Below, piece after piece: positions 3,512 to 52,684 of a stretch of DNA of 64,000 nt. The position numbers were made by a program, and so were the translations under genes. The stretch comes from an uncultured Conexibacteraceae bacterium. GTDB lineage: Bacteria > Actinomycetota > Thermoleophilia > Solirubrobacterales > Solirubrobacteraceae. Below the pieces are notes generated by a model, which was not told where the DNA came from, did no database searches, and was given only the letters and a program-made list of their open reading frames with translations. The stretch is taken from the NCBI GenBank assembly GCA_963832195.1, contig CAWHTH010000006.1:331974-395973 (forward strand), written 5' to 3'. Each line of letters opens with the position of its first letter. Within the stretch, counting starts at the first letter, position 1.

Positions 3512-5508
3512 TTCCCCTTCCACTCCGGCTTGCGCTTCGCCAGGAACGCGCCGATCCCCTCGCGGCCGTCCTCGCTGAAGAACACCGTCGCGAAGCCCTG
3601 CTTCTCGGCCTCGATGCCGGCGTCGAGGTCGCCGTTGCCGCTGACCTGCTTGATCTGCTGGACGGCGAGCGGCGCCTGCTCGGCGAGCTTGCGCGCCCAC
3701 GCCAGCGCGGTGTCGAGCAGCTCGTGATCGTCGACCACAGCGTTGACGAGGCCGAACTCGTAGGCCTCCTCGGCCGCGACCGGGTCGCCGACGAGGTTCA
3801 TCTCGAGGGCCTTGTTGTGGCCGACGAGCCGCGGCAGGCGCTGCGTGCCACCGAAGCCGGGGATGATCCCCAGCTTGATCTCGGGCTGGCCGAACAGGGC
3901 CGAGCGCGCGGCGATGCGCACATCGCACGCCATCGCCAGCTCGCAGCCGCCGCCGAACGCGAGGCCGTTGACCGCCGCGATCGTCACGACGCTGCTGCCG
4001 CCGAAGTCGCGCAGGAGCGCGTGGCACTTGTCGATCAGCTCGGCGCCGCCCGCCTCGTCCATCTGGGTGAACGCCTTGATGTCGGCGCCCGCCGAGTAGA
4101 GGAACGGATTGGACGACGCGATCACGAGCGCGCGCGCGCCGTCGGCCTGCACCTTCTCCCAGACCTTGTGGAGATCCCTCACCACGTCGGGGGAGATCGC
4201 GTTCATCTGGCCATTGGCAAGCCACGCGATCGCGATGTCGCCACGGGACTCGAGCTTGATCACCTCGCCGGGCTGCTCGTCGTCGGCCTGCGGGTAGGCG
4301 TAGAAGCCCTGACCGCTCTTCTGACCGAGCCGTCCCTGGGCGACCAGGCGCTTGAGCACCGTCGGCGGCGCGAAGTGCTCGCCGTGCTTCTCATGGGCGT
4401 TCTCGAGCCGCTCGAGCACGCCGTCCAGGCCCTCGGTGTCGGCGCGCAGGAACGGCGGCAGGAGGCCGCGGCGAGGGTCGAGCCCGGCGCCGGCCATCAT
4501 CCCGAAGTCGATGTCGCGGTGGGTGGCGACGCCCTCCTCGAGCACCAGGCAGGCCTCGACGAACGTCTTGAGCATCATCATCTCGACGAGCTCGTCGATG
4601 TCCGGGTCGGCGTCGCCCTCGATGTTGGAATTCCCCTCGGGGTCGTAGAACCCGTCGCCGCCCGTCTTGGCGCCGAGCTTGCCCTCCTCGACGAGCTTCT
4701 GCATCCCCTTCGGCACGTAGAAGCGGTCGCCGTAAGCCTCCTCGAGATGCTCGGCGACGTGGAGCACCGTGTCGAGCCCGAGCAGGTTGATCAGGAAGTA
4801 CGGGCCCATCGGCAGGACGTTCTTGCCGCCGATCCCCTCGTCGATCTTCTTGATCGAGAGGCCCTTCTCTTCCTGCTCGCGCCAGATCTCGGCGCTGCCC
4901 GAGTTGAGGATCCGGTTGACGACGAACCCCGGGACCTCGGCGCACGTGATCGGCTGCTTGCGGATCGCCTGCGCGAACGTGATCGCCGCCTGCAGGGTCT
5001 CGCCCGACGTCTCGTCGCCCTCGACGATCTCGATGAGCGGCATGATCGACGCCGGATAGAAGTAGTGGAAGCCGACGACCTTGTCGGGGCGGAGCGTCGC
5101 GTCGCCGATCTCGGTGATCGACAGCGACGACGTGTTCGACGCCAGGATCGCGTGGCCGGGCGTGGCCGCGTCGAGCTCCGCGAAGACTGCCTGCTTGATC
5201 TCCATGCGCTCGGGCACGGCCTCGATCACGAAGTCGACGTCGCCGAAGCCGTCGTACGTGGTCGTGGGCTTGATGCGCCCGACGATCTCCGCGACCTCCT
5301 TCTCGCCGTCCTCCTCGGACAGCTTGCCCTTCTCGACGAGCTTGCCGACCTGGCCCTTCGTGACGTTCGTGGCCTCCTCGATGCCGGCGTCGACGAACTT
5401 CTGCTCGACGTCCTTGAGGACGACATCGAATCCAGCGGCGGCGATCGTCTGCGCGATCTGGCCGCCCATAGTTCCGGCGCCGACGACGGCGGCCTTGAAG
5501 ACGAACAT
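3508..5508 (-). CDS. Fused 3-hydroxyacyl-CoA dehydrogenase (N-terminal) / enoyl-CoA hydratase (C-terminal)
   Basis: 666 aa. Rossmann motif VVGAGTMGGQIAQ at the N-terminus. Crotonase motif AAVNGLAFGGGCELAMACDVRIAA..FGQPEIKLGIIPGFGGTQRLPRLVG in the C-terminal third. Confidence 0.93.
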   Translation of the reverse strand: MFVFKAAVVGAGTMGGQIAQTIAAAGFDVVLKDVEQKFVDAGIEEATNVTKGQVGKLVEKGKLSEEDGEKEVAEIVGRIKPTTTYDGFGDVDFVIEAVPERMEIKQAVFAELDAATPGHAILASNTSSLSITEIGDATLRPDKVVGFHYFYPASIMPLIEIVEGDETSGETLQAAITFAQAIRKQPITCAEVPGFVVNRILNSGSAEIWREQEEKGLSIKKIDEGIGGKNVLPMGPYFLINLLGLDTVLHVAEHLEEAYGDRFYVPKGMQKLVEEGKLGAKTGGDGFYDPEGNSNIEGDADPDIDELVEMMMLKTFVEACLVLEEGVATHRDIDFGMMAGAGLDPRRGLLPPFLRADTEGLDGVLERLENAHEKHGEHFAPPTVLKRLVAQGRLGQKSGQGFYAYPQADDEQPGEVIKLESRGDIAIAWLANGQMNAISPDVVRDLHKVWEKVQADGARALVIASSNPFLYSAGADIKAFTQMDEAGGAELIDKCHALLRDFGGSSVVTIAAVNGLAFGGGCELAMACDVRIAARSALFGQPEIKLGIIPGFGGTQRLPRLVGHNKALEMNLVGDPVAAEEAYEFGLVNAVVDDHELLDTALAWARKLAEQAPLAVQQIKQVSGNGDLDAGIEAEKQGFATVFFSEDGREGIGAFLAKRKPEWKGK

Positions 5509-41035: not shown

Positions 41036-41833
41036 TCAACCTCCGATCGGGGCGCGCGGGTTCGCGCCCCAGAACAGCTGGGTCCCGAGCATCCCGATGA
41101 GATGCACGAGGACGATGTTCAAGACCATTGACTTGGCGGTCGCGGTACCCACCCCGACGGGACCACCGCCCGCGTTGTAGCCGTAGTAACAGCCCACTAG
41201 GACGATGGCGGTCGCCATCGCCATGCCCTTGATGACGCTGTACAACAGGTCGGGCGGGTTCTGGAACATCCAGAAGATCAGGAAGAACCCGCCGGACGAG
41301 ACCTCGCCTATCTGTTCGACCACCGCCAGGTAGCTGGCGAAGAACCCGGCGCCGACGGCGGCGAGGTACATGAACGGCAGCACGAGCCACGCGGCCAGCA
41401 GGCGGGTGGCGCACAGGAACGTGATCGAGTTGATGCCCATGACCTCGAGGGCGTCGATCTCGTCCGAGATGCGCATCGAGCCGAGCTCGGCGACGATGCC
41501 GGTGCCGACCTTCGCGGACATCATGTAGCCGAAGGCGTAGGGCACCAGCTCGCGCAGGTCGCACCAGGCCGCGAACACGCCCGCGTACGCGGGAGCGCCG
41601 ACCGCGCGGTTGAAGTACGCGCCCTCGATGCCGCACTGGAGGCCGATGATGAACACCAGGCCCCAGATCACGATCGTCGAGGAGAGGATCAGGATGCCCG
41701 ACTGGCGCAGCGCCTCGCCGAAGAAGCGGAAGACGCGCAGCCCGTAGACGTGCCCGAGCACGCGCCCGCAGAACTTCGCGATCTCGCCGGCCGAGGCGAT
41801 CCAGTCGCGCGGGACTGCGAACCAGCCGCCCAT
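41036..41833 (-). CDS. MlaE/YrbE-family ABC permease (second copy)
   Basis: 265 aa. MRISDEIDALEVMGINS and the GG.GVG.A...S motifs of MlaE/YrbE permeases. Confidence 0.88.
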   Translation of the reverse strand: MGGWFAVPRDWIASAGEIAKFCGRVLGHVYGLRVFRFFGEALRQSGILILSSTIVIWGLVFIIGLQCGIEGAYFNRAVGAPAYAGVFAAWCDLRELVPYAFGYMMSAKVGTGIVAELGSMRISDEIDALEVMGINSITFLCATRLLAAWLVLPFMYLAAVGAGFFASYLAVVEQIGEVSSGGFFLIFWMFQNPPDLLYSVIKGMAMATAIVLVGCYYGYNAGGGPVGVGTATAKSMVLNIVLVHLIGMLGTQLFWGANPRAPIGG

Positions 41834-42639
41834 CAGCGGATCACCTGGATCTCGGGATGGGTGGCAAGCAGCGTCTGGGTGAACACGTAGTTGAACGCGA
41901 ACACGCCGAGGAAGGCGATCACCACCGCCTGGTTGACGGCTCTACCCACCCCCTCCGCGCCACCGGAGGCGGTCATGCCCTTGTAACAGCAGACGATCGC
42001 GATGATCGCGCCGAACAAGGTGCATTTGAGGACCGACCCCCAGAGGTCCGTAGTAGAGGCGTTCGTGAAGAAGGTGGCCCAGAACGGGCCCAGCGGGGCG
42101 CCGTTCACAAGGGTTGCGATGACGCCGCCGAAGATGCCGAACAGCAGCGCGTAGACGTCGAACAGGCCGGTGACGAGCATCAGCGCCAGGAAGCGCGGCA
42201 CGACGAGGTTCTTGACAGGGTCGACGCCGAGGACCTGCAGGGCGTCGAGCTCCTCGCGGATCTTGCGGGCGCCGAGGTCCGCGGTGATGGCGGTGCCGGC
42301 GACGCCGGCGAGCACGATCGCGTCGACGAACGGCGCGAACTCTCTAATAGACGCGAGCACGAAGAAGCCGCCGAGCCGGTCCAGCGCGCCGAACAGGACG
42401 AGGAAGTTGGCGGCCTGCAGCCCGGGCGCGCCGTAGCCGAACGCCACGGTCGAGACCAGCAGCGGGAACCAGCACAGGCGCAGCGCGAACAGGAACTGCG
42501 ACACGAACTCGCCGCCGTACGGGTACGGCGGGCGAAGCGCAGAGACAATCGTCTTGCCGGTCAGGATCATCATGTCCCCGACCTCTTCGAGGACGCCCTT
42601 CGTCGGCAGGAAGACTCGATCAGCGGCGCTGCGGACCAC
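41833..42639 (-). CDS. MlaE/YrbE-family ABC permease (first copy)
   Basis: 268 aa. KIREELDALQVLGVDP, SGGAEGVGRAVNQAVV. Its stop overlaps the next start by 1 nt. Confidence 0.88.
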   Translation of the reverse strand: MVRSAADRVFLPTKGVLEEVGDMMILTGKTIVSALRPPYPYGGEFVSQFLFALRLCWFPLLVSTVAFGYGAPGLQAANFLVLFGALDRLGGFFVLASIREFAPFVDAIVLAGVAGTAITADLGARKIREELDALQVLGVDPVKNLVVPRFLALMLVTGLFDVYALLFGIFGGVIATLVNGAPLGPFWATFFTNASTTDLWGSVLKCTLFGAIIAIVCCYKGMTASGGAEGVGRAVNQAVVIAFLGVFAFNYVFTQTLLATHPEIQVIR

Positions 42640-42807
42640 GGTGTTGGGGTGCCTCTCCTCTGGCTGTGGGGACCGCCGCGAACGACGGCCGACTCCCTCG
42701 AGGCTGAGTCTATGCGAGCGTTATCGCGGCTGCCAAGCGGCAACCGTCGGCCCAACATGGCCTTCATTTGCGGGCGGAACCTCCCCTTCGCCGCGTGGCC
42801 CTTGTAT

Positions 42808-43416
42808 ATGCTCGCGCGCGTGAAGCTGACCGGGAGGAGCACGGCCTTTGCGCTCGTCGCCGTCCTCGGTTCGACGACGCTCGTCGCGGGCTGCGGCGGC
42901 GGCGATCGGCAGGACAAGGACGAGAAGGCCGGCAGCTACGAGGTCGAGGTCGTCGACGCGAAGTTCCCGGCCAAGCAGACGCTCGCCAAACAGGTCGAGT
43001 TCTCGGTCCAGGTCAAGAACACCGGCCGCGAGGACGTCCCGAACATCGCCGTCACGCTCGACTCGTTCGCGGCCCGCTCCGAGCAGCCCGGCCTCGCCGA
43101 CCCGGAGCGCCCGGTCTGGATCATCGACTCGGGCCCGCGCGGCGGCACGACCGCTTACACGAACACATGGGCACTCGGCGCCCTGCGCCCGGGCGAGATG
43201 CAGACGTTCACCTGGCGCGTGACCGCGGTCCGTCCCGGCACGCACAAGGTCAACTGGCAGGTCGCAGCCGGCCTCGACGGCAAGGCCAAGGCCGTTCCAG
43301 CCTCGGGCAGCGAGCTCGAAGGCTCTTTCACGGTCGACATCGCGCGCGAGCCGGCGCAATCGCGCGTCGATCCGGACACGGGCGACGTCATCCGCGAGGG
43401 CGACGAGTCCTCGTAG
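42808..43416 (+). CDS. Lipoprotein with an Ig-like/CARDB-like beta domain
   Basis: In-frame ATG at 42808. Lipobox LVAGC. FSVQVKNTGREDVPNIAVTL is reminiscent of CARDB-type domains. Confidence 0.6.
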   Translation: MLARVKLTGRSTAFALVAVLGSTTLVAGCGGGDRQDKDEKAGSYEVEVVDAKFPAKQTLAKQVEFSVQVKNTGREDVPNIAVTLDSFAARSEQPGLADPERPVWIIDSGPRGGTTAYTNTWALGALRPGEMQTFTWRVTAVRPGTHKVNWQVAAGLDGKAKAVPASGSELEGSFTVDIAREPAQSRVDPDTGDVIREGDESS

Positions 43417-43431
43417 CCCTCGGGCCGCCGG

Positions 43432-43734
43432 TCAGGCCGTAGCGGCGCCGGGATCGATGTGGTCGATCCGGTCGATGAGGCGCATGATCGCGTCGATCAC
43501 CGCCCGGCGCTCCTCACGCTCTTCGATCATCTCGACGCGGCGCTCGGCGCGCCACTGCCGCATCTCGGCGTGGTCCTCGTCGATGCGTGCGAGCGCCTTC
43601 TCGATGACCGCGTCGTTTCGCGCGAACGCGCGCTCCATCCGGTCGATCACACGGCTGTTCTCGCGGATGATCCGATCGCTGCGCGCGGCGAATGCCTGAA
43701 TGAAGGCGCGGAGATCGTCTTCGCGATCGGCCAT
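43432..43734 (-). CDS. Hypothetical coiled-coil protein (100 aa)
   Basis: In-frame ATG at 43734: MADREDDLRAFIQAFAARSDRIIRENSRVIDRMERAF.. Helical, charged, non-shadow composition. Confidence 0.4.
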   Translation of the reverse strand: MADREDDLRAFIQAFAARSDRIIRENSRVIDRMERAFARNDAVIEKALARIDEDHAEMRQWRAERRVEMIEEREERRAVIDAIMRLIDRIDHIDPGAATA

Positions 43735-43822
43735 TACCGCCGATTTTCGCAGGCGGACTGCGACGGAACCACCCCAACTCGCGCGTAGACTCGCGCCGAG
43801 GAAATGCGCATCAGGCTGCTGG

Positions 43823-44101
43823 GAGGGCAGCTGCGCGGCCCACTGCGTCGAGTCGATCGCCGCCGTGAGCTGCACCGGCGACGCGGCGCCCGCAGCTGCC
43901 GAGCTGCTCTCCGCCGCGGAGCGCATCCGCGAGGACCTCGGCTTCGACTCGACGGTGCCGCCCGAGCGCATCGTCAAGGACCGAGCTCACGCCGCTGCGG
44001 CGGCCGCGCTCGACGAGAACGAGCTGGCGGCCGCGCTGGAGCGCGGCCGCCAGTTGACCTTCGATCAGGCCGTCGCCCGTGCGCTGGAGGCGACGGCCTG
44101 A
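43823..44101 (+). pseudogene. C-terminal remnant of a STAND/TPR regulator paralogous to 44862..47480
   Basis: EGSCAAHCVESIAAVSCTGDAAPAAAELLSAAERIREDLG...ERGRQLTFDQAVARALE aligns by eye with the last ~85 aa of the 890-aa protein (NRNCGAHCLETTAGLVARMGEAEAGSELLGTAERLREVLG...ERGRSLAFEAAMARALE). No upstream ATPase part is present. Confidence 0.5.
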
Positions 44102-44132
44102 CCTGCTGGGCCGACGGCGCGTCACGAAGGCC

Positions 44133-44783
44133 TCAGGCCGCTGTGACCGCCCAGTCGCCGAGCACCTGCCAGATACCCGCGACGGACGAGTGGGTCACGA
44201 CATTGAAGCCGTGCCGGGTGGTGCTCACCACGTTCGGGGCCCCTTCGGAGCCTCCCGTCCCGCTGTGTGTAACGCACAGGTGCCCGGGCGACGGCGTGAG
44301 CAAGCCTGCCGTAGTCTGGCAGTCGGGATGGGTTTCGCCGATCCGCACGACGTGAGCCTGGGGCACCGTCGCAAGAGTGAAGACAAACGAAACCATGTCC
44401 AGGTCGAAGTCGTTCCCGGCGCCCACGTTGGCCCACCGCCCGCGCAGCGTCTTCCCGCTTGGCAGCACGTCGGGGAACTCCCCTGCCGGGCCCGGTGCCC
44501 CAGTGTCGCCCGTCGGTCCCCGGGGACCAGTCGGCCCAGTAGGTCCGGGGCGGCCTCGCTGGTCCCAGTTCAGCGCCGTCTCGTTCGAGCTGCACTTGCG
44601 CACCGCATCGTCGATCACGCGCAGCGTGCCGCCCGACTTGGTGTAACACGCGTGAATCACGCCGTCTGAACCCGGGATCGCGGCGACCGCGAGCCCGGCG
44701 GCGGCAACAGCGGCCGCCACCGACGCGGCGATCACCGGCGACGACAGCCGACGGCCGGAACGGATGATGCGGGTAAAGAACAT
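44133..44783 (-). CDS. Secreted protein with a conserved N-module and collagen-like G-X-Y repeats
   Basis: 216 aa. Signal/anchor, IPGSDGVIHACYTKSGGTLRVIDDAVRKCSSNETALNWDQRG, then GRPGPTGPTGPRGPTGDTGAPGPAG. Paralog of 52156..52647. Confidence 0.75.
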   Translation of the reverse strand: MFFTRIIRSGRRLSSPVIAASVAAAVAAAGLAVAAIPGSDGVIHACYTKSGGTLRVIDDAVRKCSSNETALNWDQRGRPGPTGPTGPRGPTGDTGAPGPAGEFPDVLPSGKTLRGRWANVGAGNDFDLDMVSFVFTLATVPQAHVVRIGETHPDCQTTAGLLTPSPGHLCVTHSGTGGSEGAPNVVSTTRHGFNVVTHSSVAGIWQVLGDWAVTAA

Positions 44784-44829
44784 TTCGGTCCTCCCTCGAG
44801 GTGAAGTAGTGGCACCTGCTTCACCCGAA

Positions 44830-44856
44830 GACGCGCGCCCGCGGCGGTTTTCTCCC
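44830..44856 (-). promoter_or_regulatory. ECF-type promoter motif copy P3: GGGAGAAA-N15-CGTC
   Basis: Minus strand reads GGGAGAAA ACCGCCGCGGGCGCG CGTC. It lies 46 nt upstream of the ATG at 44783. Confidence 0.6.
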
Positions 44857-44861
44857 GCAGA

Positions 44862-47480
44862 TCAGGAGATGTGCTCGAGCGCTCGCGCCATCGCCGCTTC
44901 GAACGCGAGCGACCGCCCGCGCTCACGCGCGGCTTCGCGGGTGTCGTCGTCGAGGCTCGCGCCAACCATGGCCTCGCTTCGCGCACGAACGAACGCCTCG
45001 TAAGCCGGCGCCGCGCCGCCGAGAACCTCGCGCAGGCGCTCGGCGGTGCCGAGGAGCTCTGAGCCCGCTTCGGCTTCGCCCATTCGGGCGACCAGGCCGG
45101 CCGTGGTCTCCAGGCAATGCGCACCGCAGTTGCGGTTGTCCATCTGGTGGTAGAGAGGAAGCGCCTTGGCGAGGCATTCGCGGGCCACGTGGAGATCGCC
45201 GCGGGCCTCCGCGCCGATGGCGCGGAACTCCCAGATGTGGGCCTGCCAGTTCGGCGCGGGGATCTGATCGATCAGCACGGCCGCTTCCTCCAACATGGCC
45301 CATGCGCGGTCGACGTCGCGGTCGACCCACCACAGCGCGCACAGCGCCACCGTGAGGCCGACCATCAGAGGATCCTCGGATCGCCGAGCCACCTCGATCC
45401 CGTCCTCGATCAGGCCGCTGAGCTCAGCCTCCGTGATTCCCCCGCCGACGTGAACGCCCCAGGCATTGATCACCAACCAGAGATATGCAGCGGCCTGCGC
45501 GACGGTGTCGCCGGTCGCGCGCGCGATCTCGAGGCTCGCCGTGCAAAGCCGGGTGCCCTCCTCCCATACTCCGCTCTGGAAGCACAACCGCCCCGCCGCG
45601 AGCAGCCCCGCGGCGCGAACCGCATCTGAAACGTCGCCGGGGGCGGCGAGCAACCGCTCCATCATCGGCTGTGCTTCGCGCATGTGCCCGCGCCAGAGCC
45701 AGAACCCGGCGACGCTGATTGATGCGATCTTCAGGCCGGCCTCGGGATTGCCGGAGGCCAGCGACCACTCGAGCGCCGCGCGGGTGTTGTCGAGCTCGGT
45801 CTCGAGCAGGTCGAGGCAGCGCGCCTGCGCCAGACCGCTGAGTCCCGGCTCGACCTGTTGCGCGAAGGCGACCATCCAGTCCAAATGCGCGTCGCGGACC
45901 TCCTTCGCGCGCCCCGTTTCTTGGAGGCGATCGCGGCCGTACTGGCGCAGCGTTTCGAGCAACCGGTAGCGGACTACACCGTCGCGCGCCTCGTCGCGAA
46001 CCACGAGCGACTTGTCCACGAGCGTGCCGAGCCCCGCGAGGACCTCCCGCCGCTCCATCCCGCACGAAGCGCAGACGTCGGCCGCCGCATCCACCGTCCA
46101 GCCGCCGACGAAGACGGAGAGGCTGTCGAACAGGGTGCGGTGTCGGTCGTCGAGCAGGTCATAGCTCCACGCGACGGTGGCCTCGAGCGTGCGCTGGCGC
46201 GGCAGCGCCGTGCGTGCGCCGCCAGTCAGCAGCGTGAAGCGATCGTCGAGGTGAGCCGCCAGGTCGGCGAGCGAGAAGGAAGCTGTACGCGCGGCGGCGA
46301 GCTCGATCGCCAGCGGCAGGCCGTCGAGCCGCCGACACAGTTGCGTCACGAGCGGTTCCGACTCGCCCTCGAAATCGACACCTGGCTGCGCGTCGCGCGC
46401 ACGGTCGGTGAATAGCGCGACGGCGTCCGGGTCGGGGAGCGATGCGGTGCGGAACACGACCTCCCCGGGAATTCCGAGCGGCTCCCTGCTCGTGGCGAGG
46501 ACACGCAGGTTCGCCGCCTCCTGGAGCAGATCCTGCGCCACCCGTGCGGACTCGTCCACGAGGTGCTCGCAGTTGTCGACGACCAGGAGGAGCATCTCCG
46601 CGTCGCGCACGCGCGCGAGCACGTCGTCGCGCAGCGGGGTGTCCGGACGCTCGCGGACCCCGAGCGCCTGTGCGAAGGCCTTGATCACCAGGCCCGGATC
46701 GGCGACCGGGGCAAGGTCGACCAGCCAGGCGCCGCCTGACAGGTCCTCTGCACGGCGAGCCGCAAGCTCGAGCGCGAGGCGCGTCTTCCCCGTGCCACCG
46801 GCGCCGGTGAGAGTGACGAGACGCGCGTCGGTGAGGAGCGCGCCGATCTCCTCGAGCTCATGCTCGCGGCCTACGAACGTCGTCAGCTGGAGCGGCAGGT
46901 TGGTGCTCGGCGCGTCCGCCCTGCGCCCGGGGGTCGTGGGAGGTCCGGCGAGCAACGGGAAGGGGTTCTCGGGCTCCGGGGAATAGGTGCAGAACGCGCC
47001 TGTCTTCACAGCGCGCTCGAGATGGACACCGAGCTGCGGCAGCTCGTCCGCGATGTGGCGGACCGCCTTGCGGATCGCGCGGCCGACGCTCTGCCGCGCG
47101 CGCTCGGCCTGAGAGGCGGCCGGCCGGTCACGACCACCGAGTCCCACGGCCTGCGCCAGCTCGCGGCCGATGAAGTCGAGCTCCTCTTGGGCGCGCGCGG
47201 CACGCTCGTCGTCGTTCCAGGTCCGCGCCTCCTCCAGCTCTTCGCGCAGCCCCTGTACACGTGCGCGGTACTCGGACTTGGCCTGCTCGTCCAGCACCGG
47301 CGCCGCGCTCTCGGCCACCGTCGCCTCGGGAGCCGCGAGCTCGAGCACGTGCAGCTCCGCGCCGGGGTGCGCCAGCAGCGTCGCCAGATATTCGAGTCCC
47401 TTCGACGACTTCAGGCGCACCTCGGCCCCGCCGTGGCACACAGCCCAGTAGTCGCCCTCCCGCCACAGCCCTTGGTCCAT
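44862..47480 (-). CDS. STAND (NB-ARC-like) NTPase with a C-terminal TPR array and an N-terminal domain of unknown function
   Basis: P-loop LTGAGGTGKTRLALE, LLVVDNCEHL, GLPLAIELAA, then a TPR-like region. N-terminus has GDYWAVCHGGAEVRLKSSKGLEYLATLLAHPG. The ATG at 47480 has a GGGAGG RBS. The listed alternative start is 47534. Confidence 0.85.
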   Translation of the reverse strand: MDQGLWREGDYWAVCHGGAEVRLKSSKGLEYLATLLAHPGAELHVLELAAPEATVAESAAPVLDEQAKSEYRARVQGLREELEEARTWNDDERAARAQEELDFIGRELAQAVGLGGRDRPAASQAERARQSVGRAIRKAVRHIADELPQLGVHLERAVKTGAFCTYSPEPENPFPLLAGPPTTPGRRADAPSTNLPLQLTTFVGREHELEEIGALLTDARLVTLTGAGGTGKTRLALELAARRAEDLSGGAWLVDLAPVADPGLVIKAFAQALGVRERPDTPLRDDVLARVRDAEMLLLVVDNCEHLVDESARVAQDLLQEAANLRVLATSREPLGIPGEVVFRTASLPDPDAVALFTDRARDAQPGVDFEGESEPLVTQLCRRLDGLPLAIELAAARTASFSLADLAAHLDDRFTLLTGGARTALPRQRTLEATVAWSYDLLDDRHRTLFDSLSVFVGGWTVDAAADVCASCGMERREVLAGLGTLVDKSLVVRDEARDGVVRYRLLETLRQYGRDRLQETGRAKEVRDAHLDWMVAFAQQVEPGLSGLAQARCLDLLETELDNTRAALEWSLASGNPEAGLKIASISVAGFWLWRGHMREAQPMMERLLAAPGDVSDAVRAAGLLAAGRLCFQSGVWEEGTRLCTASLEIARATGDTVAQAAAYLWLVINAWGVHVGGGITEAELSGLIEDGIEVARRSEDPLMVGLTVALCALWWVDRDVDRAWAMLEEAAVLIDQIPAPNWQAHIWEFRAIGAEARGDLHVARECLAKALPLYHQMDNRNCGAHCLETTAGLVARMGEAEAGSELLGTAERLREVLGGAAPAYEAFVRARSEAMVGASLDDDTREAARERGRSLAFEAAMARALEHIS

Positions 47481-47565
47481 CGGTCCTCCCTCGCGGCCAA
47501 GTCTATGTCTGCAAGTCGTGAATTCCGCGTGCACATCGTGACGGCCGAATTCGCGCCTTCAGGGC

Positions 47566-48384
47566 ATGACGACGACAACCACAAACGACATCTACGCGAC
47601 GATCACCACCACCCCGCCCGAGGTCCAGGAGCTGATCGCGGGAGTGATGGAGCTACGCGCGGCACAGCCGGCCCAGCGAGAGATGCTCGAGTCCTACTTG
47701 GCCGAGCTTCCCCTGCCGGACGGCGCCCGCGTGCTGGAAGTGGGCTGCGGTACGGGCGCGGTCGCGCGCGTCATTGCCGCGGACCCGCGCGTCGGCGAGG
47801 TTGTCGGCGTCGATCCCTGCGCGCGGTTCGTCGAGCTTGCCCGCGAGCGCGTGAACGGCGGCGCGCCACAGTCGTTCCTCGTGGCAGACGGGCGTGTGCT
47901 CCCCGATCCCGACGAGACGTACGACGCCGTGGTCCTCCACACGGTTCTCTGCCACACGCCGCAGCCCGAGGAGCTCCTAGCCGAAGCGCACCGCGTCCTG
48001 CGCCCGGGCGGCTCGCTCGCCGTCTTCGACAACGACCCGGTCACCGCCACCGTCGCCAACGGGCCGCACGACCCGCTCCAGGTCTGCATCGACGCCGCCC
48101 TGGACGCGCTCGTGCACGACCCGTACCTCGCGCGCAAGCTGACGGGCCTAGTCCGCGCGGCTGGATTCGAGCCGGCGCAACAGCGCAGCCACGGCTACGC
48201 CGAGAGCGGCGAGTCGGCCTACCTGCTGTCCGTCTTGGACCGCGGGGCGGACGCGCTCGCCGCCACGGGCCGCATCGGGCCTGGTCTCGCCGAGGCACTC
48301 AAGGCCGAAGCGCGCGAGCGCATCGAGCAGGGGACGTTCGCCGCGCAGGCGGCCTACGCGAGCGTCATCGGCCGCAAGCGCTGA
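47566..48384 (+). CDS. Class I SAM-dependent methyltransferase
   Basis: 272 aa. Motif I VLEVGCGTGAVARV, LRPGGSLAVFD. Confidence 0.8.
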   Translation: MTTTTTNDIYATITTTPPEVQELIAGVMELRAAQPAQREMLESYLAELPLPDGARVLEVGCGTGAVARVIAADPRVGEVVGVDPCARFVELARERVNGGAPQSFLVADGRVLPDPDETYDAVVLHTVLCHTPQPEELLAEAHRVLRPGGSLAVFDNDPVTATVANGPHDPLQVCIDAALDALVHDPYLARKLTGLVRAAGFEPAQQRSHGYAESGESAYLLSVLDRGADALAATGRIGPGLAEALKAEARERIEQGTFAAQAAYASVIGRKR

Positions 48385-48486
48385 GCGCGGCGACAACCGG
48401 TTTCACGCATGGCTCGCGCTCGCCTCGCGGTGGCTTAGCGGTCGCCGCAGAGGCTGCGGAGCAGTCGATCTGGGAGGAGGCAGGAC

Positions 48487-49020
48487 ATGAGCACAGTTGC
48501 GATCCGCGTCCCGCTGCGAACGGCGCCGGGACGACGGCTACGGCTCGACGAGGAGGTCGTCGGGACCCACTTCGGGAGGCTCTTTCGGGCAGCGCTCGCG
48601 CTCACCGGCTCGCGGCCGGACGCCGAGGACCTCGTGCAGGACACGTTCGCACGGGTGCTGGCACGGCCGCGCTTTGTGCGCGGCGAGTCCGACCTGGGCT
48701 ATCTGCTTCAGGTGCTGCGCAACACATGCGTGTCGCGCCACCGCGCGGCATTGTGCCGCCCGCAGACAACCTGCTGGCCCGACGACGGCGAATACGCCGC
48801 AACCGACCGCTGCTACGACCCGCAGCTCGCGGCCGAGCGCCTCGACATCGCCGCCGCGCTGGCCAAGCTGCCGGCACCGATGCGTGACGCGGTCGTCGCG
48901 GTCGACGTGATGGACCTCGACTACCGCAGCGCCGCAAAGGCACTCAACGTCAGCGAAGGCACGATCCGCAGCCGCGTCTGGCGCGGCCGCGAACGGCTTG
49001 CGGGGCTGATCGAGCGTTGA
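48487..49020 (+). CDS. ECF-family RNA polymerase sigma factor
   Basis: 177 aa. Region 2 (AEDLVQDTFARVL..YLLQVLRN) and region 4 HTH (PMRDAVVAVDVMDLDYRSAAKALNVSEGTIRSRVWRGRERL). Confidence 0.88.
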   Translation: MSTVAIRVPLRTAPGRRLRLDEEVVGTHFGRLFRAALALTGSRPDAEDLVQDTFARVLARPRFVRGESDLGYLLQVLRNTCVSRHRAALCRPQTTCWPDDGEYAATDRCYDPQLAAERLDIAAALAKLPAPMRDAVVAVDVMDLDYRSAAKALNVSEGTIRSRVWRGRERLAGLIER

Positions 49021-49023
49021 AGG

Positions 49024-49050
49024 CGGAGAAAAACATGCGCGCTGCGCGTC
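49024..49050 (+). promoter_or_regulatory. ECF-type promoter motif copy P4: CGGAGAAA-N15-CGTC
   Basis: CGGAGAAA AACATGCGCGCTGCG CGTC starts 4 nt after the sigma-factor stop codon. Confidence 0.5.
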
Positions 49051-49141
49051 GTCAGACACAAGACCCAAGCCTGGCCGCGAGCGGCGCGGCGGGCCGCAAG
49101 GCCCGCGGTCGGTCCTCCCAGACACTCGCGGCCTGATCAAC

Positions 49142-49179
49142 GGCCGGGCGCGGGCACAGCGACCCGCCCGCGCCCGGCC
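49142..49179 (+). terminator. Strong GC hairpin (13-bp stem GGCCGGGCGCGGG/CCCGCGCCCGGCC, 12-nt loop) without a U-tract
   Basis: Read directly. Flanked by TGATCA/GATCA. Lies between promoter motif P4 and the 49297 ORF. It could be an I-shaped terminator, an attenuator or a protein site. Confidence 0.3.
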
Positions 49180-49296
49180 TCGATCAGCGCGCGTCTGCGC
49201 CGGTTCCAGCAGCTCATGAGTTCACGCCGGTGTCGCGGAGCTTTCACGGATGCGGGCGAGCCTCTCCCCACCCGACAACCACTCGACGGAGGGGAC

Positions 49297-49743
49297 ATGA
49301 ACACCATCCACACAGGGCGTAAGCGGTCATCTTGCGTCGCCGCAACCGCTGCGCTCGCGGCGTGCTTGTCGCTCACCACCGCCGGGACCGGTGTGCGGCA
49401 GCGCTACGAGCGGTATGCGTCGACGCTGGCGGATCGTCGTGCGAACCCCGTCGCGGCCGCGGCTGCGGCAGCGCACGAGGTGCCCAGCTGCCTGTTCCCC
49501 GACAACCAGGAGGCATTCGACGCCGCGCTCGCCGAGTCGCTCGCCGCGGTGCCGGACGGTCGGGCGGAGGTCGCCGGCGTGGCGCTCGGGCGGGCCGTCC
49601 TCTTCCGCCGTGGCGCGAGTGTGAATCGGACGCGAAACCCACCTCGCCGCGCGCGGGCTCAGCGCGCACGGACCGTCCGGGTCGTCGCGCGCACGCGGCG
49701 CCCGGCGGCGTCGGTGACCGAGCCGGAGATGCGGACCCGGTAG
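49297..49743 (+). pseudogene. Truncated N-terminal fragment of a PAP2/vanadium-haloperoxidase-like secreted protein
   Basis: GGAGGGG RBS and the ATG at 49297. Signal peptide. Then AAAAAAHEVPSCLFPDNQEAFDAALAESLAAVPDGRAEVAGVALGRAV, which resembles the N-terminal helices of that family. The reading frame degenerates where it overlaps the convergent 49659..52055 gene. Confidence 0.35.
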
Positions 49744-52055
49744 CGCTGGCCGCGGCGGATGCGCGGGCTTCGCATCGTGACGACGCGGCCGGTGAAATGC
49801 CGGGTCACGCGGGCGTCGATCGCGCTGCCGCGACCATCGCCGACGGTCACGGAACGAGGCCCGACCCCCGTCACGAACTTAGAGAAACGAATCTCGACAC
49901 GGCCGCTACGCGCACGGATGCTGCGGACGCGGGGAGCGCCCCGGCCGGCGGGGCCGGGGCGGACGACGATGAGCACCTGTGCAGTGCTCGACGCACCGGA
50001 CGCGTCGCGCGCCGTCAGCGTCACGGTGTGCGTGCCGACCGACGCCGTAGCCCACTGGATCCCTCCGCCCGAGGCGATGACACCGTCCCGGCTCGAGGTC
50101 CACGTCAGATTGTCGCCAGCACTGGAGCCGTCTTCGGAGTCGAACGCGGCGCCCTGGAGGTTGATGGGATTGCCGGCAGTCGCGACCAGTGCCGTTCGCC
50201 CGGGGGCGGGTGCAACGGGCACCTCGATCGCAACATGCGGGGCCTTGTTCGGCACGGGGAAGACCCGGTCGGATTCATCGACCGCCGTATGGAACCCGTC
50301 GCTCGCCAATACCCGGAACCGCCCCTTGTCCGTGCCTTCGAGATTCGCCATGTCGAGTGGATACGCGAGGTCGGGAATGTCCGAATCGATCGTCCGCCAC
50401 GTCGTTCCGCCGTCCTGGCTGTACTGGAGCACGTAGGTGAGCGTGTCGTTGTCACCGTCGACGGCGGTCCAGCTCACGTTGCGGGTGCCGGCCGTTTCGA
50501 GCGGCCTAGGCTCGGGCGGATCGGTCCAGTGCACTGTGGGGGCGTTCGCGGAGGCCGAGCGCGACGCCAGCACTGTGTCGCCGCGTCGCAGCTCGATACG
50601 AACGGCCCCTTCGACGATCGGGAGAATGACCCTGAAGTGATCTGTCCCGTCCGAATGGGCGATCTGGGGCGAGAACTCGCGCGTCACGAGGGCATTCCCG
50701 GAGCCGTCGAGCACGACGATCGAGTAAGGACCCGTCGTCGGTAGCGAGTCGCGCCCCTTCGCAACGGACTGATAGACCGTGGTCAGCTCTCCTCCCGTCG
50801 AGCTCACCACACCGGCGACCAGCAGACGCGGGCCGGGCGGGGGCTCAGGATCCGGGCTTGCCTGTGATGCCGATGCCAGGCCGTTAGCGGGACGGTGCTC
50901 CGCGTGCGTGCGCAGATAGTCGAGAATTTCCACGTAGCGCGCGCGCGAAATCCAATGGTCACCGTTCACCGTGTTCATGAAGATCGTCGCGCGATCGGGG
51001 ATCGCCCGGACGGCGTATGTGTCGAATCCCTTGATTCCGTCCTCCATCAGGCCGTCGTCGTGGCCGCCCAGGATCCCGACCATGCCGATGTTGTGTCCCA
51101 GCTCATGCGCGGGGGCGACCCCATCGCGTATTGCCACGAAGTCCTCGCCACGAATCTCCCCCCGGCCACCGATGGTCTCGCCGCCGTTGTTCACCCACGA
51201 CACAGTCGACGGTAAAACCCCCACGAACGACGTCTGGCCGGTGTATTCGACGACCGGGATGCCGGCGAGCGAGCTATTGGCATCCAGCGCCGCGAGGATC
51301 GACTGCGCATTGTTGGTGTTGCTGCGCAGCGTGCCCCAGAAGTCGCTCATGAGCAGCCGCTCGTCGGCCACCGGCCACAGCGACTTGATCGACGGCAGGA
51401 TCCGCGTCGGGTCGCTGACCGTCACCCCGGTCGGGTTATAGACCACGCGCCAGGGGAGCAGTGTGACTCCGCCGGAGCGCTGGAAGACCACGCGGACGTT
51501 CGCGGTATTCGCGTAGTCGTCGCAGCCCGGGCATTCCGGTAGCCGGAACGTCGCTCCCGACACATTGATCTGTACCTCGAACTGGACGTCGCCACGCTCC
51601 CAGTCGTCCGGGAGGATGAAATTCCACGTCAGGTGTGCGCCGTCGCGGGCGCGCTCACGTAACTGGTCGGTCGTGCCGACGCGCGTCGTCTCGACGTTGA
51701 GTCCTCCGCTGGTCCTTCTGCCCAGGAAGACACCGCTGCGACGCGCCGCCATGGAGGCGTACACCGGACCGACCGTGTTCGTCGTCGCGCCTTCGGCGGC
51801 AGCGGAGATCCGCACAGCCGTCTGCTTGCCCTCGATGAGAGGGACGGCCGTGGAGCCCGTCCCGGGGTAGTCGATGACCGAGCGTACGGTGCTCCGGCGC
51901 GTGTCGTTGTAGATGGCGCGCGGGCCCTGGATGGCCTGAGTGACCTCCACGCTTGTCACGTACAGGTTGAGGCTCTGCGCCGAGCCGACGCTGGGCACGG
52001 CCAGGCCGGCGAGCAGAGCGATGAGAACCGGGATGCGGAGAGCTGAGGGCTTCAT
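49659..52055 (-). CDS. Large secreted HEXXH zinc-metalloprotease-like protein with several Ig-like/PKD-like domains
   Basis: In-frame ATG at 52055 gives the signal peptide MKPSALRIPVLIALLAGLAVPSVGSAQS. HELGHNIG near the middle. C-terminal beta-rich repeats (e.g. VSWTAVDGDNDTLTYVLQYSQDGG, GTHTVTLTARDASG). The upstream part of the listed ORF is shadow sequence. Confidence 0.8.
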   Translation of the reverse strand: MKPSALRIPVLIALLAGLAVPSVGSAQSLNLYVTSVEVTQAIQGPRAIYNDTRRSTVRSVIDYPGTGSTAVPLIEGKQTAVRISAAAEGATTNTVGPVYASMAARRSGVFLGRRTSGGLNVETTRVGTTDQLRERARDGAHLTWNFILPDDWERGDVQFEVQINVSGATFRLPECPGCDDYANTANVRVVFQRSGGVTLLPWRVVYNPTGVTVSDPTRILPSIKSLWPVADERLLMSDFWGTLRSNTNNAQSILAALDANSSLAGIPVVEYTGQTSFVGVLPSTVSWVNNGGETIGGRGEIRGEDFVAIRDGVAPAHELGHNIGMVGILGGHDDGLMEDGIKGFDTYAVRAIPDRATIFMNTVNGDHWISRARYVEILDYLRTHAEHRPANGLASASQASPDPEPPPGPRLLVAGVVSSTGGELTTVYQSVAKGRDSLPTTGPYSIVVLDGSGNALVTREFSPQIAHSDGTDHFRVILPIVEGAVRIELRRGDTVLASRSASANAPTVHWTDPPEPRPLETAGTRNVSWTAVDGDNDTLTYVLQYSQDGGTTWRTIDSDIPDLAYPLDMANLEGTDKGRFRVLASDGFHTAVDESDRVFPVPNKAPHVAIEVPVAPAPGRTALVATAGNPINLQGAAFDSEDGSSAGDNLTWTSSRDGVIASGGGIQWATASVGTHTVTLTARDASGASSTAQVLIVVRPGPAGRGAPRVRSIRARSGRVEIRFSKFVTGVGPRSVTVGDGRGSAIDARVTRHFTGRVVTMRSPRIRRGQRYRVRISGSVTDAAGRRVRATTRTVRAR

Positions 52056-52064
52056 GCCCCCAAT

Positions 52065-52091
52065 GACGCCGCGCGCTTCCGTTTTTCTCCC
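52065..52091 (-). promoter_or_regulatory. ECF-type promoter motif copy P2: GGGAGAAA-N15-CGTC
   Basis: Minus strand reads GGGAGAAA AACGGAAGCGCGCGG CGTC. The CGTC ends 9 nt before the ATG at 52055, implying a leaderless or near-leaderless mRNA. Confidence 0.6.
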
Positions 52092-52118
52092 GGGAGAAAT
52101 CCTCCCGCGCGCGGCGTC
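52092..52118 (+). promoter_or_regulatory. ECF-type promoter motif copy P1: GGGAGAAA-N15-CGTC
   Basis: GGGAGAAA TCCTCCCGCGCGCGG CGTC, 37 nt upstream of the ATG at 52156 (GGGAGG RBS at 52143-52148). Confidence 0.6.
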
Positions 52119-52155
52119 GTCAAGAGCAACCAAGCAACCACTGGGAGGCTCTCTC

Positions 52156-52647
52156 ATGAAGGTCACGACCAGGATCAGTCGCTTCCGGCCCAGCCGCACG
52201 ACGGCAGTCGCCGTCGCGGCACTCGTCGTCGCCACGGGCGGCATCGCGTTCGCGACGATCCCCGCGTCCGACGGCGTCATCCATGCCTGCTTCTTGAAGT
52301 CGGGCGGCACGCTGCGCGTCATCGACAGCGCGACCGGCAAGTGCAAGTCGACCGAGCAGTCGCTCAGCTGGAACCAGCGGGGCATTCCCGGAGCGCCGGG
52401 CGGCCTGTCGGGCTATCAGCGCGTGTCCGAACGCTTCGCCAACACGCAGCGAGGCGTCGCCCGCTGCCCCGAGGGCAAGATGGCGGTGGGCGGTGGGTAC
52501 AGCGTCACCCTTCCCACCTCGACGCCAGGGCTCCGTAAGAGCCTGTCAGGGCAGGACGGGAACGGCATCCAGCTCTGGCTCGTGGAGTTCGACGAGCCCG
52601 TCGAAGATTTTGCCGTCGAGGTGATCTGCGCGAACGGGAGCGAGTAG
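52156..52647 (+). CDS. Secreted protein sharing the N-module of 44133..44783
   Basis: In-frame ATG at 52156. MKVTTRISRF..VVATGGIAFATIPASDGVIHACFLKSGGTLRVIDSATGKCKSTEQSLSWNQRGIPGAPG, then an unrelated Cys-containing C-domain. Confidence 0.75.
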   Translation: MKVTTRISRFRPSRTTAVAVAALVVATGGIAFATIPASDGVIHACFLKSGGTLRVIDSATGKCKSTEQSLSWNQRGIPGAPGGLSGYQRVSERFANTQRGVARCPEGKMAVGGGYSVTLPTSTPGLRKSLSGQDGNGIQLWLVEFDEPVEDFAVEVICANGSE

Positions 52648-52684
52648 CAACTCGAGGAGAGCGCCTTCGGGCGCTCTCCCCGCA

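Follow-up and report, generated by a model that had tools for sequence, protein, structure and literature searches.

Two genes, here called A and B, in a 64,000-nucleotide (nt) stretch of contig CAWHTH010000006.1 from an uncultured Conexibacteraceae bacterium (the whole of this stretch is referred to below as the window) appear to encode Sec-exported, signal peptidase-processed members of a large and uncharacterised family of collagen-like 'lollipop' proteins. Proteins of this general kind, the bacterial collagen-like fibre proteins, are already known; what is new is the short N-terminal domain that A and B share (the N-module or N-cap) and the family to which it belongs, neither of which is described in any of the libraries that we searched. 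We regard the existence of the family and its architecture, in which the N-cap is followed by a stalk of G-X-Y triplets and an interchangeable C-terminal head, as highly probable. The wider reading, in which A and B would form trimeric surface fibres and be expressed from a locally controlled regulon, blends parts of differing strength, and as a whole we give it a probability of about 0.6. The two genes and their parts are as follows.

44133..44783, minus strand: gene A, 216 amino acids (aa); predicted signal peptide, N-module, eight to nine G-X-Y triplets and a beta-sandwich head ending WAVTAA
44682..44783, minus strand: A residues 1-34, Sec signal peptide predicted from its pattern, with cleavage after A-V-A34
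44556..44681, minus strand: A residues 35-76, N-module (AIPGSDGVIHACY..GTLRVID..C..E..L.W.Q.) with Cys46 and Cys64, from BLASTP of A against B and a profile match to residues 34-77
44475..44555, minus strand: A residues 77-103, collagen-like run of eight triplets plus GEF, read from the sequence
44136..44474, minus strand: A residues 104-216, conserved C-terminal head (LPSGKTLRG...CPGT...PGHLC...WAVTAP family), from an alignment of 27 sequences
52156..52647, plus strand: gene B, 163 aa; predicted signal peptide, N-module, three vestigial triplets and a small Cys-bridged head (GLSGY..CPxGKxAVGGG..VICAN)
52255..52380, plus strand: B residues 34-75, N-module with Cys45 and Cys63, from BLASTP, a profile match to residues 33-76 and the predicted strands

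Both open reading frames (ORFs) lie where an earlier reading of the DNA, made from its letters alone (the sequence-only reading), had placed them, and both have the third-position G+C content (GC3) of coding DNA (0.82 in A and 0.90 in B, in a genome of 71% G+C). That reading had matched the two N-termini by eye at about 32 of 50 positions; BLASTP aligns residues 30-83 of A with residues 29-82 of B at 36 of 54 identities (67%, E 8e-23) and finds no other similarity, the two proteins diverging completely beyond this point. It had also counted about eight G-X-Y triplets in A, of which eight are complete (G77-A100) and are followed by G-E-F, and had given B a separate Cys-containing domain, which is indeed a small Cys-bridged head unlike that of A. 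B has three triplets only (G76-L84). At the DNA level the two modules form an inverted repeat of 165 nt with 74% identity, and 214 homologues of A were found.

The N-terminus of each protein consists of a basic stretch, a hydrophobic helix (residues 15-28 in the AlphaFold2 (AF2) model of A and 15-27 in that of B) and an A-x-A sequence right before [A/T]-I-P, and the same arrangement stands directly before the module in 211 of the 227 family members inspected. This pattern suggests a cleavable signal peptide, an uncleaved anchor being less likely, with cleavage predicted after A34 in A and after A33 in B, and the module would then start the mature chain of both proteins. The AF2 models, which are of monomers only, have a mean predicted confidence (pLDDT) of 82.8 for A, with most of the head above 90, and a mediocre 70.7 for B.

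A profile of 45 positions, built from the four modules encoded in this genome, was searched against 1.84 billion representatives of 50%-identity clusters and matched 9,070 of them at E<=1e-3 and 2,295 at E<=1e-10. The signature of the module is A-[ATS]-I-P-x3-G-V-I-[HT]-x-C-Y-x(3-6)-G-x-L-R-V-I-D-x(4-6)-C-x3-E-x2-L-x-[WF]-N-Q-x-G; over 148 aligned modules Pro4, Cys13, Arg22 and Cys32 are invariant and the first profile column is Ala in 141. AF2 predicts three strands (residues 42-48, 53-57 and 68-74 in A, with pLDDT ~74-89 over residues 41-80, and residues 41-47, 53-56 and 67-73 in B), and a single internal disulfide probably links the two invariant Cys residues. The N-cap can be described, then, as a predicted three-stranded beta module of ~42 residues with one conserved Cys pair. 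No match to it was found in Pfam-A, NCBIfam, PHROGs or the PDB sequences, the profile returning only chance matches (HicA and MiXBM) from the last of these, and this bears out the earlier statement that the module could be assigned to no characterised family. The N-cap is a common domain, with at least 9,070 clusters at 50% identity, yet neither the domain libraries searched nor the solved structures include it. Two candidate identities were rejected: a likeness to the foldon that can be made out by eye (IP..DG..Y.K.G) found no support from hhalign, which gave it a probability of 1.1% over three columns, and PF27479, listed on the homologue P0063, is absent from the clearest N-module proteins and so is probably not the N-cap.

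The sequence-only reading had suggested that the family be defined by a profile search, its taxonomic spread traced and its paralogues counted genome-wide. The first of these yielded the clusters given above, and the count came to four N-module genes: A, B, a gene for a 235-aa protein with ~18 triplets (C6:998166, paralogue 3) and one for a 177-aa protein (C6:978433, paralogue 4). The spread, which rests on searches of 401 genomes of the phylum and 25 of the genus together with a few named matches, is patchy. Ten of the 25 genus genomes have the module, including this one, which has the most copies, and it occurs in 18 of the 401 phylum genomes, in several families; none was found in the other families of the order among those sampled. 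The named homologues come from metagenome-assembled genomes (MAGs) of Solirubrobacteraceae and Gaiellaceae and from one Amycolatopsis. A search of public genome contigs for related loci, which was swamped by the GPTGPTGP pattern, returned two Solirubrobacteraceae MAG loci only, and among public sequencing runs none was found to contain the locus. The N-cap marks out a large family of secreted collagen-like proteins among the uncultured Actinomycetota of soil. Paralogues 3 and 4 share a palindromic element of ~40 nt (GGGAGAGGGGTGGTGGATTCCACCCCTsTCrTCCCCTCCC) that lies ~70-110 nt before the start codon of each.

C6:998040-998100 and C6:978500-978560, outside the window: the palindromic element upstream of paralogues 3 and 4

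The architecture of the family was taken from the 146 best profile matches, which were found with the module alone and therefore carry no bias towards collagen. The module begins within the first 45 residues in 139 of these and would be the very N-terminus of the mature chain; in 121 it is followed immediately by at least four G-X-Y triplets; and BLASTP groups the C-terminal parts into 45 or more clusters, of which two are large and one of these two includes B. The precomputed domains of other members include pentapeptide repeats, Hcp and PF03777. Most homologues of B have ~5-10 or more triplets between module and head where the alignment shows a clean gap in B, and B can thus be regarded as a stalk-less derivative. 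Two proteins depart from the usual position of the module: P0122 (236 aa) has two N-modules in tandem with no collagen between them, and P0179 (743 aa) has an internal module at residues 464-508.

Heads are swapped at the DNA level. P0003, with an A-type head, and P0269, with a B-type head, are identical at 64 of their first 70 residues and have nothing alike beyond. More telling is a pair of metagenome contigs, L070 and L067, that are 83% identical from 40 nt upstream across the leader, module and stalk, and 87% identical again in the 3' flank with its globin gene, whilst the intervening head-coding segment of 240-410 nt is unrelated between the two; the 5' breakpoint is the end of the G-X-Y-coding stretch. 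Together with the architecture counts and the number of head clusters, this bears out, and extends, the modular family of exported proteins that the sequence-only reading had proposed. Such exchange suggests that recognition is being diversified, for instance in adhesion, in aggregation or in defence, be it against phages or against neighbours. At the locus where A-type and B-type heads alternate, the globin gene lies directly 3' of the N-module gene (1331-1768 in L070 and 4952-5548 in L067). Tandem pairs of N-module or collagen-like genes are also seen, at 1000-1701 and 2564-3217 in L066 and at 4931-5455 and 5603-5977 in L040, and in the L066 pair the upstream regions are duplicated too (74% identity over 170 nt).

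What the head of A might do is suggested by its predicted fold. Foldseek comparison with the PDB gives phage tailspike C-terminal domains (4ru5, 4ru4), the knobs of R-pyocin fibres (6cxb, 6cl5) and H-type lectins as its nearest neighbours, with E values of 0.01-0.1 and probability ~1, matches that are weak but consistent. The H-type lectins include Helix pomatia agglutinin (2ce6), discoidin and SLL-2; the weak matches to 2ce6, 2ccv and 4q56 have E 0.05-0.06, TM ~0.56-0.59 on the target and a root-mean-square deviation (rmsd) of ~4 Å. In a viral library the head matched 'H-type lectin domain' and tail-fibre tip models (E ~1e-3 to 2e-3, rmsd 2-4 Å, ~110 columns). Because its fold resembles those of H-type lectins and of phage and pyocin fibre tips, the ligand of A would probably be a glycan. 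No C1q or TNF fold is present among the best 50 Foldseek matches listed for either head.

The same resemblance raises the question of whether A and B are simply remnants of prophage or tailocin tail fibres. PHROG tail-fibre families do match A, head swapping is typical of phage fibres and the two genes lie within an accessory island (described below). The PHROG matches, however, are confined to residues 55-128 of A and nearly all to the G-X-Y stretch at ~68-128, and tblastn finds the N-module in none of 50,697 phage records and 72,556 plasmid records. Signal peptides of Sec type are predicted for A and B and are not a feature of tail fibres, the island has no capsid, tail, integrase or lysis gene, and the homologues sit among ordinary cellular genes. 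We consider a phage origin of this sort highly improbable.

In the reading that we prefer, three chains would assemble into a trimer, by analogy with collagen-like and fibre-tip proteins, with the N-cap as the base of the fibre and the head binding a ligand. The N-cap would either staple and register the three chains or fix the fibre to the envelope. Recombination at the point where the G-X-Y-coding stretch ends exchanges the heads, and B is a derivative whose stalk has been lost. That A and B form trimeric, lectin-like surface fibres is a tentative proposal, drawn by analogy and falling somewhat short of even odds, and several results weigh against it. A scores 20.5 bits with the Pfam Collagen model (PF01391), below the cut-off of 27.2, and B has no match, although paralogue 3 passes with 35.6 bits. 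A run of eight triplets would not by itself give a stable triple helix, and B is without a stalk. All fold matches of the A head are weak (E 1e-3 to 1e-1), Pfam H_lectin (PF09458) has no match on residues 104-216 of A at E<=1, and the head of B has no confident Foldseek neighbour.

In the bolder form of our reading the N-cap would be an autonomous, disulfide-stapled trimerisation and registration domain that enables triple helices to form from 3-10 triplets, and the constant handle of soil-wide, recombining lectin fibres that are switched by STAND, LAL or ECF (extracytoplasmic function) regulators; in this full form the proposal is an unlikely one. Were the N-cap to nucleate or staple such very short triple helices, it would be a new and compact nucleation domain for collagen, comparable in its use to the foldon or the Scl V domain, and a tool for recombinant bacterial collagens. 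Alternatively, the N-cap may be mainly an attachment device that joins the base of the fibre to the envelope or a surface polymer, trimerisation being driven by the head. On Bacillus spores this task falls to the N-terminal domain in BclA and to the Cys-bearing N-terminal connector in L-BclA. The position of the module at the start of the mature chain in 139 of 146 proteins fits such a role, as does its retention in the stalk-less B, and the folds closest to the A head, those of H-type lectins and trimeric fibre tips, form trimers unaided. The A head family is also found behind a different N-terminal module (LPxNSVGxxQLKxxAV repeats) plus collagen, and that an unrelated module can stand before the same stalk and head suggests an exchangeable base function. 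The Bcl family follows a like logic, its N-terminal domain being constant and its C-terminal domains varied, with a collagen-like region between them (PMC8968730). Nevertheless, no conserved partner gene lies beside the N-module genes at the loci examined, the module has no known wall-binding or sorting motif and no Pfam or NCBIfam match, and its Cys residues, being even in number, are more likely to pair internally than to bond covalently with a partner. We therefore hold attachment as the main function of the N-cap to be somewhat doubtful; if it does anchor fibres, it would mark an unknown surface layer in these bacteria.

The second part of our reading concerns how A and B are expressed. 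The sequence-only reading had placed the motif GGGAGAAA-N15-CGTC before both genes, and it is found there, 46 nt upstream of the ATG of A and 37 nt upstream of that of B. Related sites and a sigma factor gene lie between the two.

44830..44856, minus strand: PA, GGGAGAAA-N15-CGTC, 46 nt before the A ATG and 6 nt past the stop codon of a STAND gene
52092..52118, plus strand: PB, GGGAGAAA-N15-CGTC, 37 nt before the B ATG
52065..52091, minus strand: PM, mirrored against PB, ending 9 nt before the ATG of a gene for a 798-aa protein
49024..49050, plus strand: PX, CGGAGAAA-N15-CGTC, 4 nt past the sigma stop codon and ahead of a probable gene remnant
48487..49020, plus strand: ECF sigma factor gene, 177 aa; Pfam Sigma70_r2 (PF04542) and Sigma70_r4_2 (PF08281), TIGR02937

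When one mismatch is tolerated, four sites are found in the window where 0.27 would be expected, and none of 100 shuffles reached four. Across the whole 3.70-Mb assembly there are three copies of the strict motif and four of GGAGAAA-N14-GCGTC, all of them in the island and within 7.3 kb. The four sites have only two conserved blocks, at fixed spacing (22 nt from GG to CGTC) and with differing spacers, and all are oriented towards downstream genes, three of them at 9, 37 and 46 nt from start codons. ECF promoters have the consensus GGAAC-N16/17-CGT, to which the motif is equal in geometry, and on pattern the four sites would be ECF promoters with -35-like and -10-like blocks. As PM ends only 9 nt before its ATG, the transcript of the 798-aa gene would be leaderless or nearly so. 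A scan for sigma-70 promoters and terminators gave nothing useful. Some 32 genes of the sigma-70 family are present in the genome, and one ECF gene lies in the centre of the sites; its product has regions 2 and 4 only, as in ECF (group 4) factors, scores 55.1 bits with TIGR02937 against a cut-off of 42.9 and is closest to the SigM/SigE-type models, yet falls below their cut-offs.

It is likely, judging from these sites, that A and B are co-regulated, and plausible only that one sigma factor controls both; a local ECF regulon is, in our view, a reasonably good bet. Set against it are the following observations. The expected co-occurrence of paralogues with the motif breaks down, paralogues 3 and 4 of the same genome being without it, and it is likewise absent at all the homologous loci examined, both the N-module loci of relatives and those on metagenome contigs, and at the ~50%-identical sigma homologues of relatives. 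A link with the sigma factor would thus be local and not family-wide. The sigma gene has no motif upstream of it and no adjoining anti-sigma gene, unlike its ~50%-identical homologues in relatives. No close orthologue of the sigma factor was found, the best homologue anywhere being 57% identical. Finally, PB and PM abut, and as 27-nt arms of 78% complementarity they make up a quasi-palindrome of 54 nt, which could be the operator of a dimeric regulator.

This last feature is the starting point for a different account, in which the 27-nt motif is an operator half-site for a regulator, either the N-terminal domain of the STAND protein or the PucR-type neighbour, and the sigma gene is a bystander or a further target. 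That the sigma gene has neither an upstream motif nor an anti-sigma partner fits this account, and N-module genes elsewhere recur beside LAL, SARP or STAND regulators, not sigma genes. In L039, L040, L054 and L067 (AAA_16...GerE) and in L059 and L061 (SARP/BTAD) a large regulator is encoded no more than two genes away from the N-module gene, and none is found by the N-module gene at the conserved locus L055/L060 or in the Amycolatopsis contig L056; by our estimate, adjacency at six of eight informative metagenome loci is far above chance. The form of the sites speaks otherwise. PA and PX are single, unpaired sites, and two short conserved blocks at fixed spacing with variable spacers are the signature of -35/-10 elements. 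The CGTC block fits ECF promoters, as does its 22-nt distance from GG, all four sites face downstream genes at promoter distances, and pucR is a conserved gene outside the island. An operator seems to us quite unlikely.

In the regulon that we favour, A, B and the 798-aa protein would form a self-contained unit within the island, whose own orphan ECF sigma factor would read the four GGAGAAA-N14-GCGTC promoters. The STAND-TPR protein, encoded divergently from a methyltransferase-sigma operon, would be the likely upstream switch, in keeping with the large regulators beside N-module genes on metagenome contigs. If this is right, the island holds an unusually small and clean ECF system, in which one sigma factor serves four promoters and the genome has no further site, and promoter and sigma factor could be matched with ease.

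The island and its remaining genes are as follows.

42640..52684: accessory island of ~10 kb between the conserved genes yrbE (Mce permease) and pucR
44862..47534, minus strand: STAND NTPase-TPR gene, 872-890 aa, directly upstream of A; Pfam AAA_22, nSTAND1 and NB-ARC, partial FxSxx_TPR
49659..52055, minus strand: gene for a secreted 798-aa HExxH protein with immunoglobulin (Ig)-like domains; signal peptide, HELGHNIG motif, weak Big_9 and PKD matches, PM upstream

That this is an accessory island at a variable site is shown by comparison with relatives. In two of them (G007 and G002) yrbE orthologues, 87-88% identical to window positions 41036-42639, lie 0.8 kb from the pucR orthologue, and in a third (G024) the same site is occupied by 6.9 kb of unrelated DNA, against 10 kb here. 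No flanking direct repeats, tRNA gene or integrase were seen at the island edges. The STAND gene is divergent from the methyltransferase-sigma gene pair and has its ribosome-binding 5' context in common with A, CGAGGGAGGACCGA before the ATG (44785-44807 for A and 47480-47502 for the STAND gene). Its start is thus probably at 47480 rather than at the GTG at 47534, which would leave only 85 nt between the STAND and methyltransferase genes. The 798-aa HExxH multi-Ig protein has no orthologue in the 25 relatives.

Two further ORFs in the island look incomplete. Just downstream of A, an ORF on the plus strand (43823-44101) has an end that resembles the C-terminus of the STAND-TPR protein (…ERGRQLTFDQAVARALEATA as against …ERGRSLAFEAAMARALEHIS); judged by this likeness it is what is left, stranded, of a second STAND gene and points to past rearrangement in the island. 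The ORF after PX (49297-49743, plus strand) has coding-type GC3 over ~49380-49560, a lipoprotein-like N-terminus (…LAAC) and no family match, and its 3' end overlaps the convergent 798-aa gene by ~85 nt. It is probably a gene remnant, truncated during assembly of the island.

Several known systems resemble parts of this one. The putative regulon recalls the actinobacterial SigE/SigM ECF regulons in having a sigma factor with regions 2 and 4 only, promoters of GGA..-N-CGTC geometry and exported targets. It differs from them in its -35 block (GGAGAAA instead of GGAAC), in having neither an autoregulatory copy of the motif nor an anti-sigma gene and in being apparently limited to one 10-kb island.

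With phage tail fibres and R-type pyocin fibres A shares the nearest folds of its head and the swapping of heads by recombination, and collagen-like repeats are present in many phage tail fibres, as they are in A. The head matches are weak, however (E 1e-3 to 1e-1, TM ~0.4-0.6 on the target), and A and B differ from such fibres in their predicted export by the Sec route, in lying outside any phage context and in having a module that is absent from phage records. The collectins, ficolins and C1q of animals offer a parallel in layout: a signal peptide, a Cys-containing N-terminal segment, a collagen stalk and a globular head, that of A being lectin-like by fold. There is no kinship in sequence or fold in any part and the likeness is one of analogy only. 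The Cys pair of A and B lies inside a folded beta module, whereas the animal defence collagens have a short segment that forms interchain cross-links, and A and B lack their neck coiled coil.

Among bacterial proteins, the streptococcal Scl1 and Scl2 have a non-collagenous V domain, N-terminal to the triple helix, that nucleates trimerisation (PMC8968730). The N-cap is likewise N-terminal to the stalk, and trimer nucleation is one of the two roles proposed for it. In other respects the two are unlike: the V domain is helical and hypervariable and the Scl proteins have a C-terminal LPXTG anchor, whereas A and B have a conserved beta module in the N-cap and vary in their C-terminal part; the NCBIfam Scl models match the G-X-Y part only.

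The remaining comparison is with the Bcl collagen-like glycoproteins of Bacillus (BclA, BclB and relatives), which are reviewed in PMC8968730. The N-terminus of A and B, a two-Cys beta module, is unrelated in sequence to the exosporium-targeting motif of the Bcl proteins; no such targeting sequence was found in A or B, where the NCBIfam and Pfam scans match the G-X-Y stretch only. The family of A and B also differs in its classical signal peptide, its much shorter stalks (3-20 triplets), heads that are not C1q/TNF-like and a host that, judging by named homologues, is a soil actinobacterium of the Solirubrobacterales type, with no known spore context. The overall plan is nevertheless the same, with a short common N-terminal domain, a collagen-like region of variable length, C-terminal domains of differing folds and several paralogues in each genome, and in the case of the Bcl proteins the product of this plan is a surface fibre.

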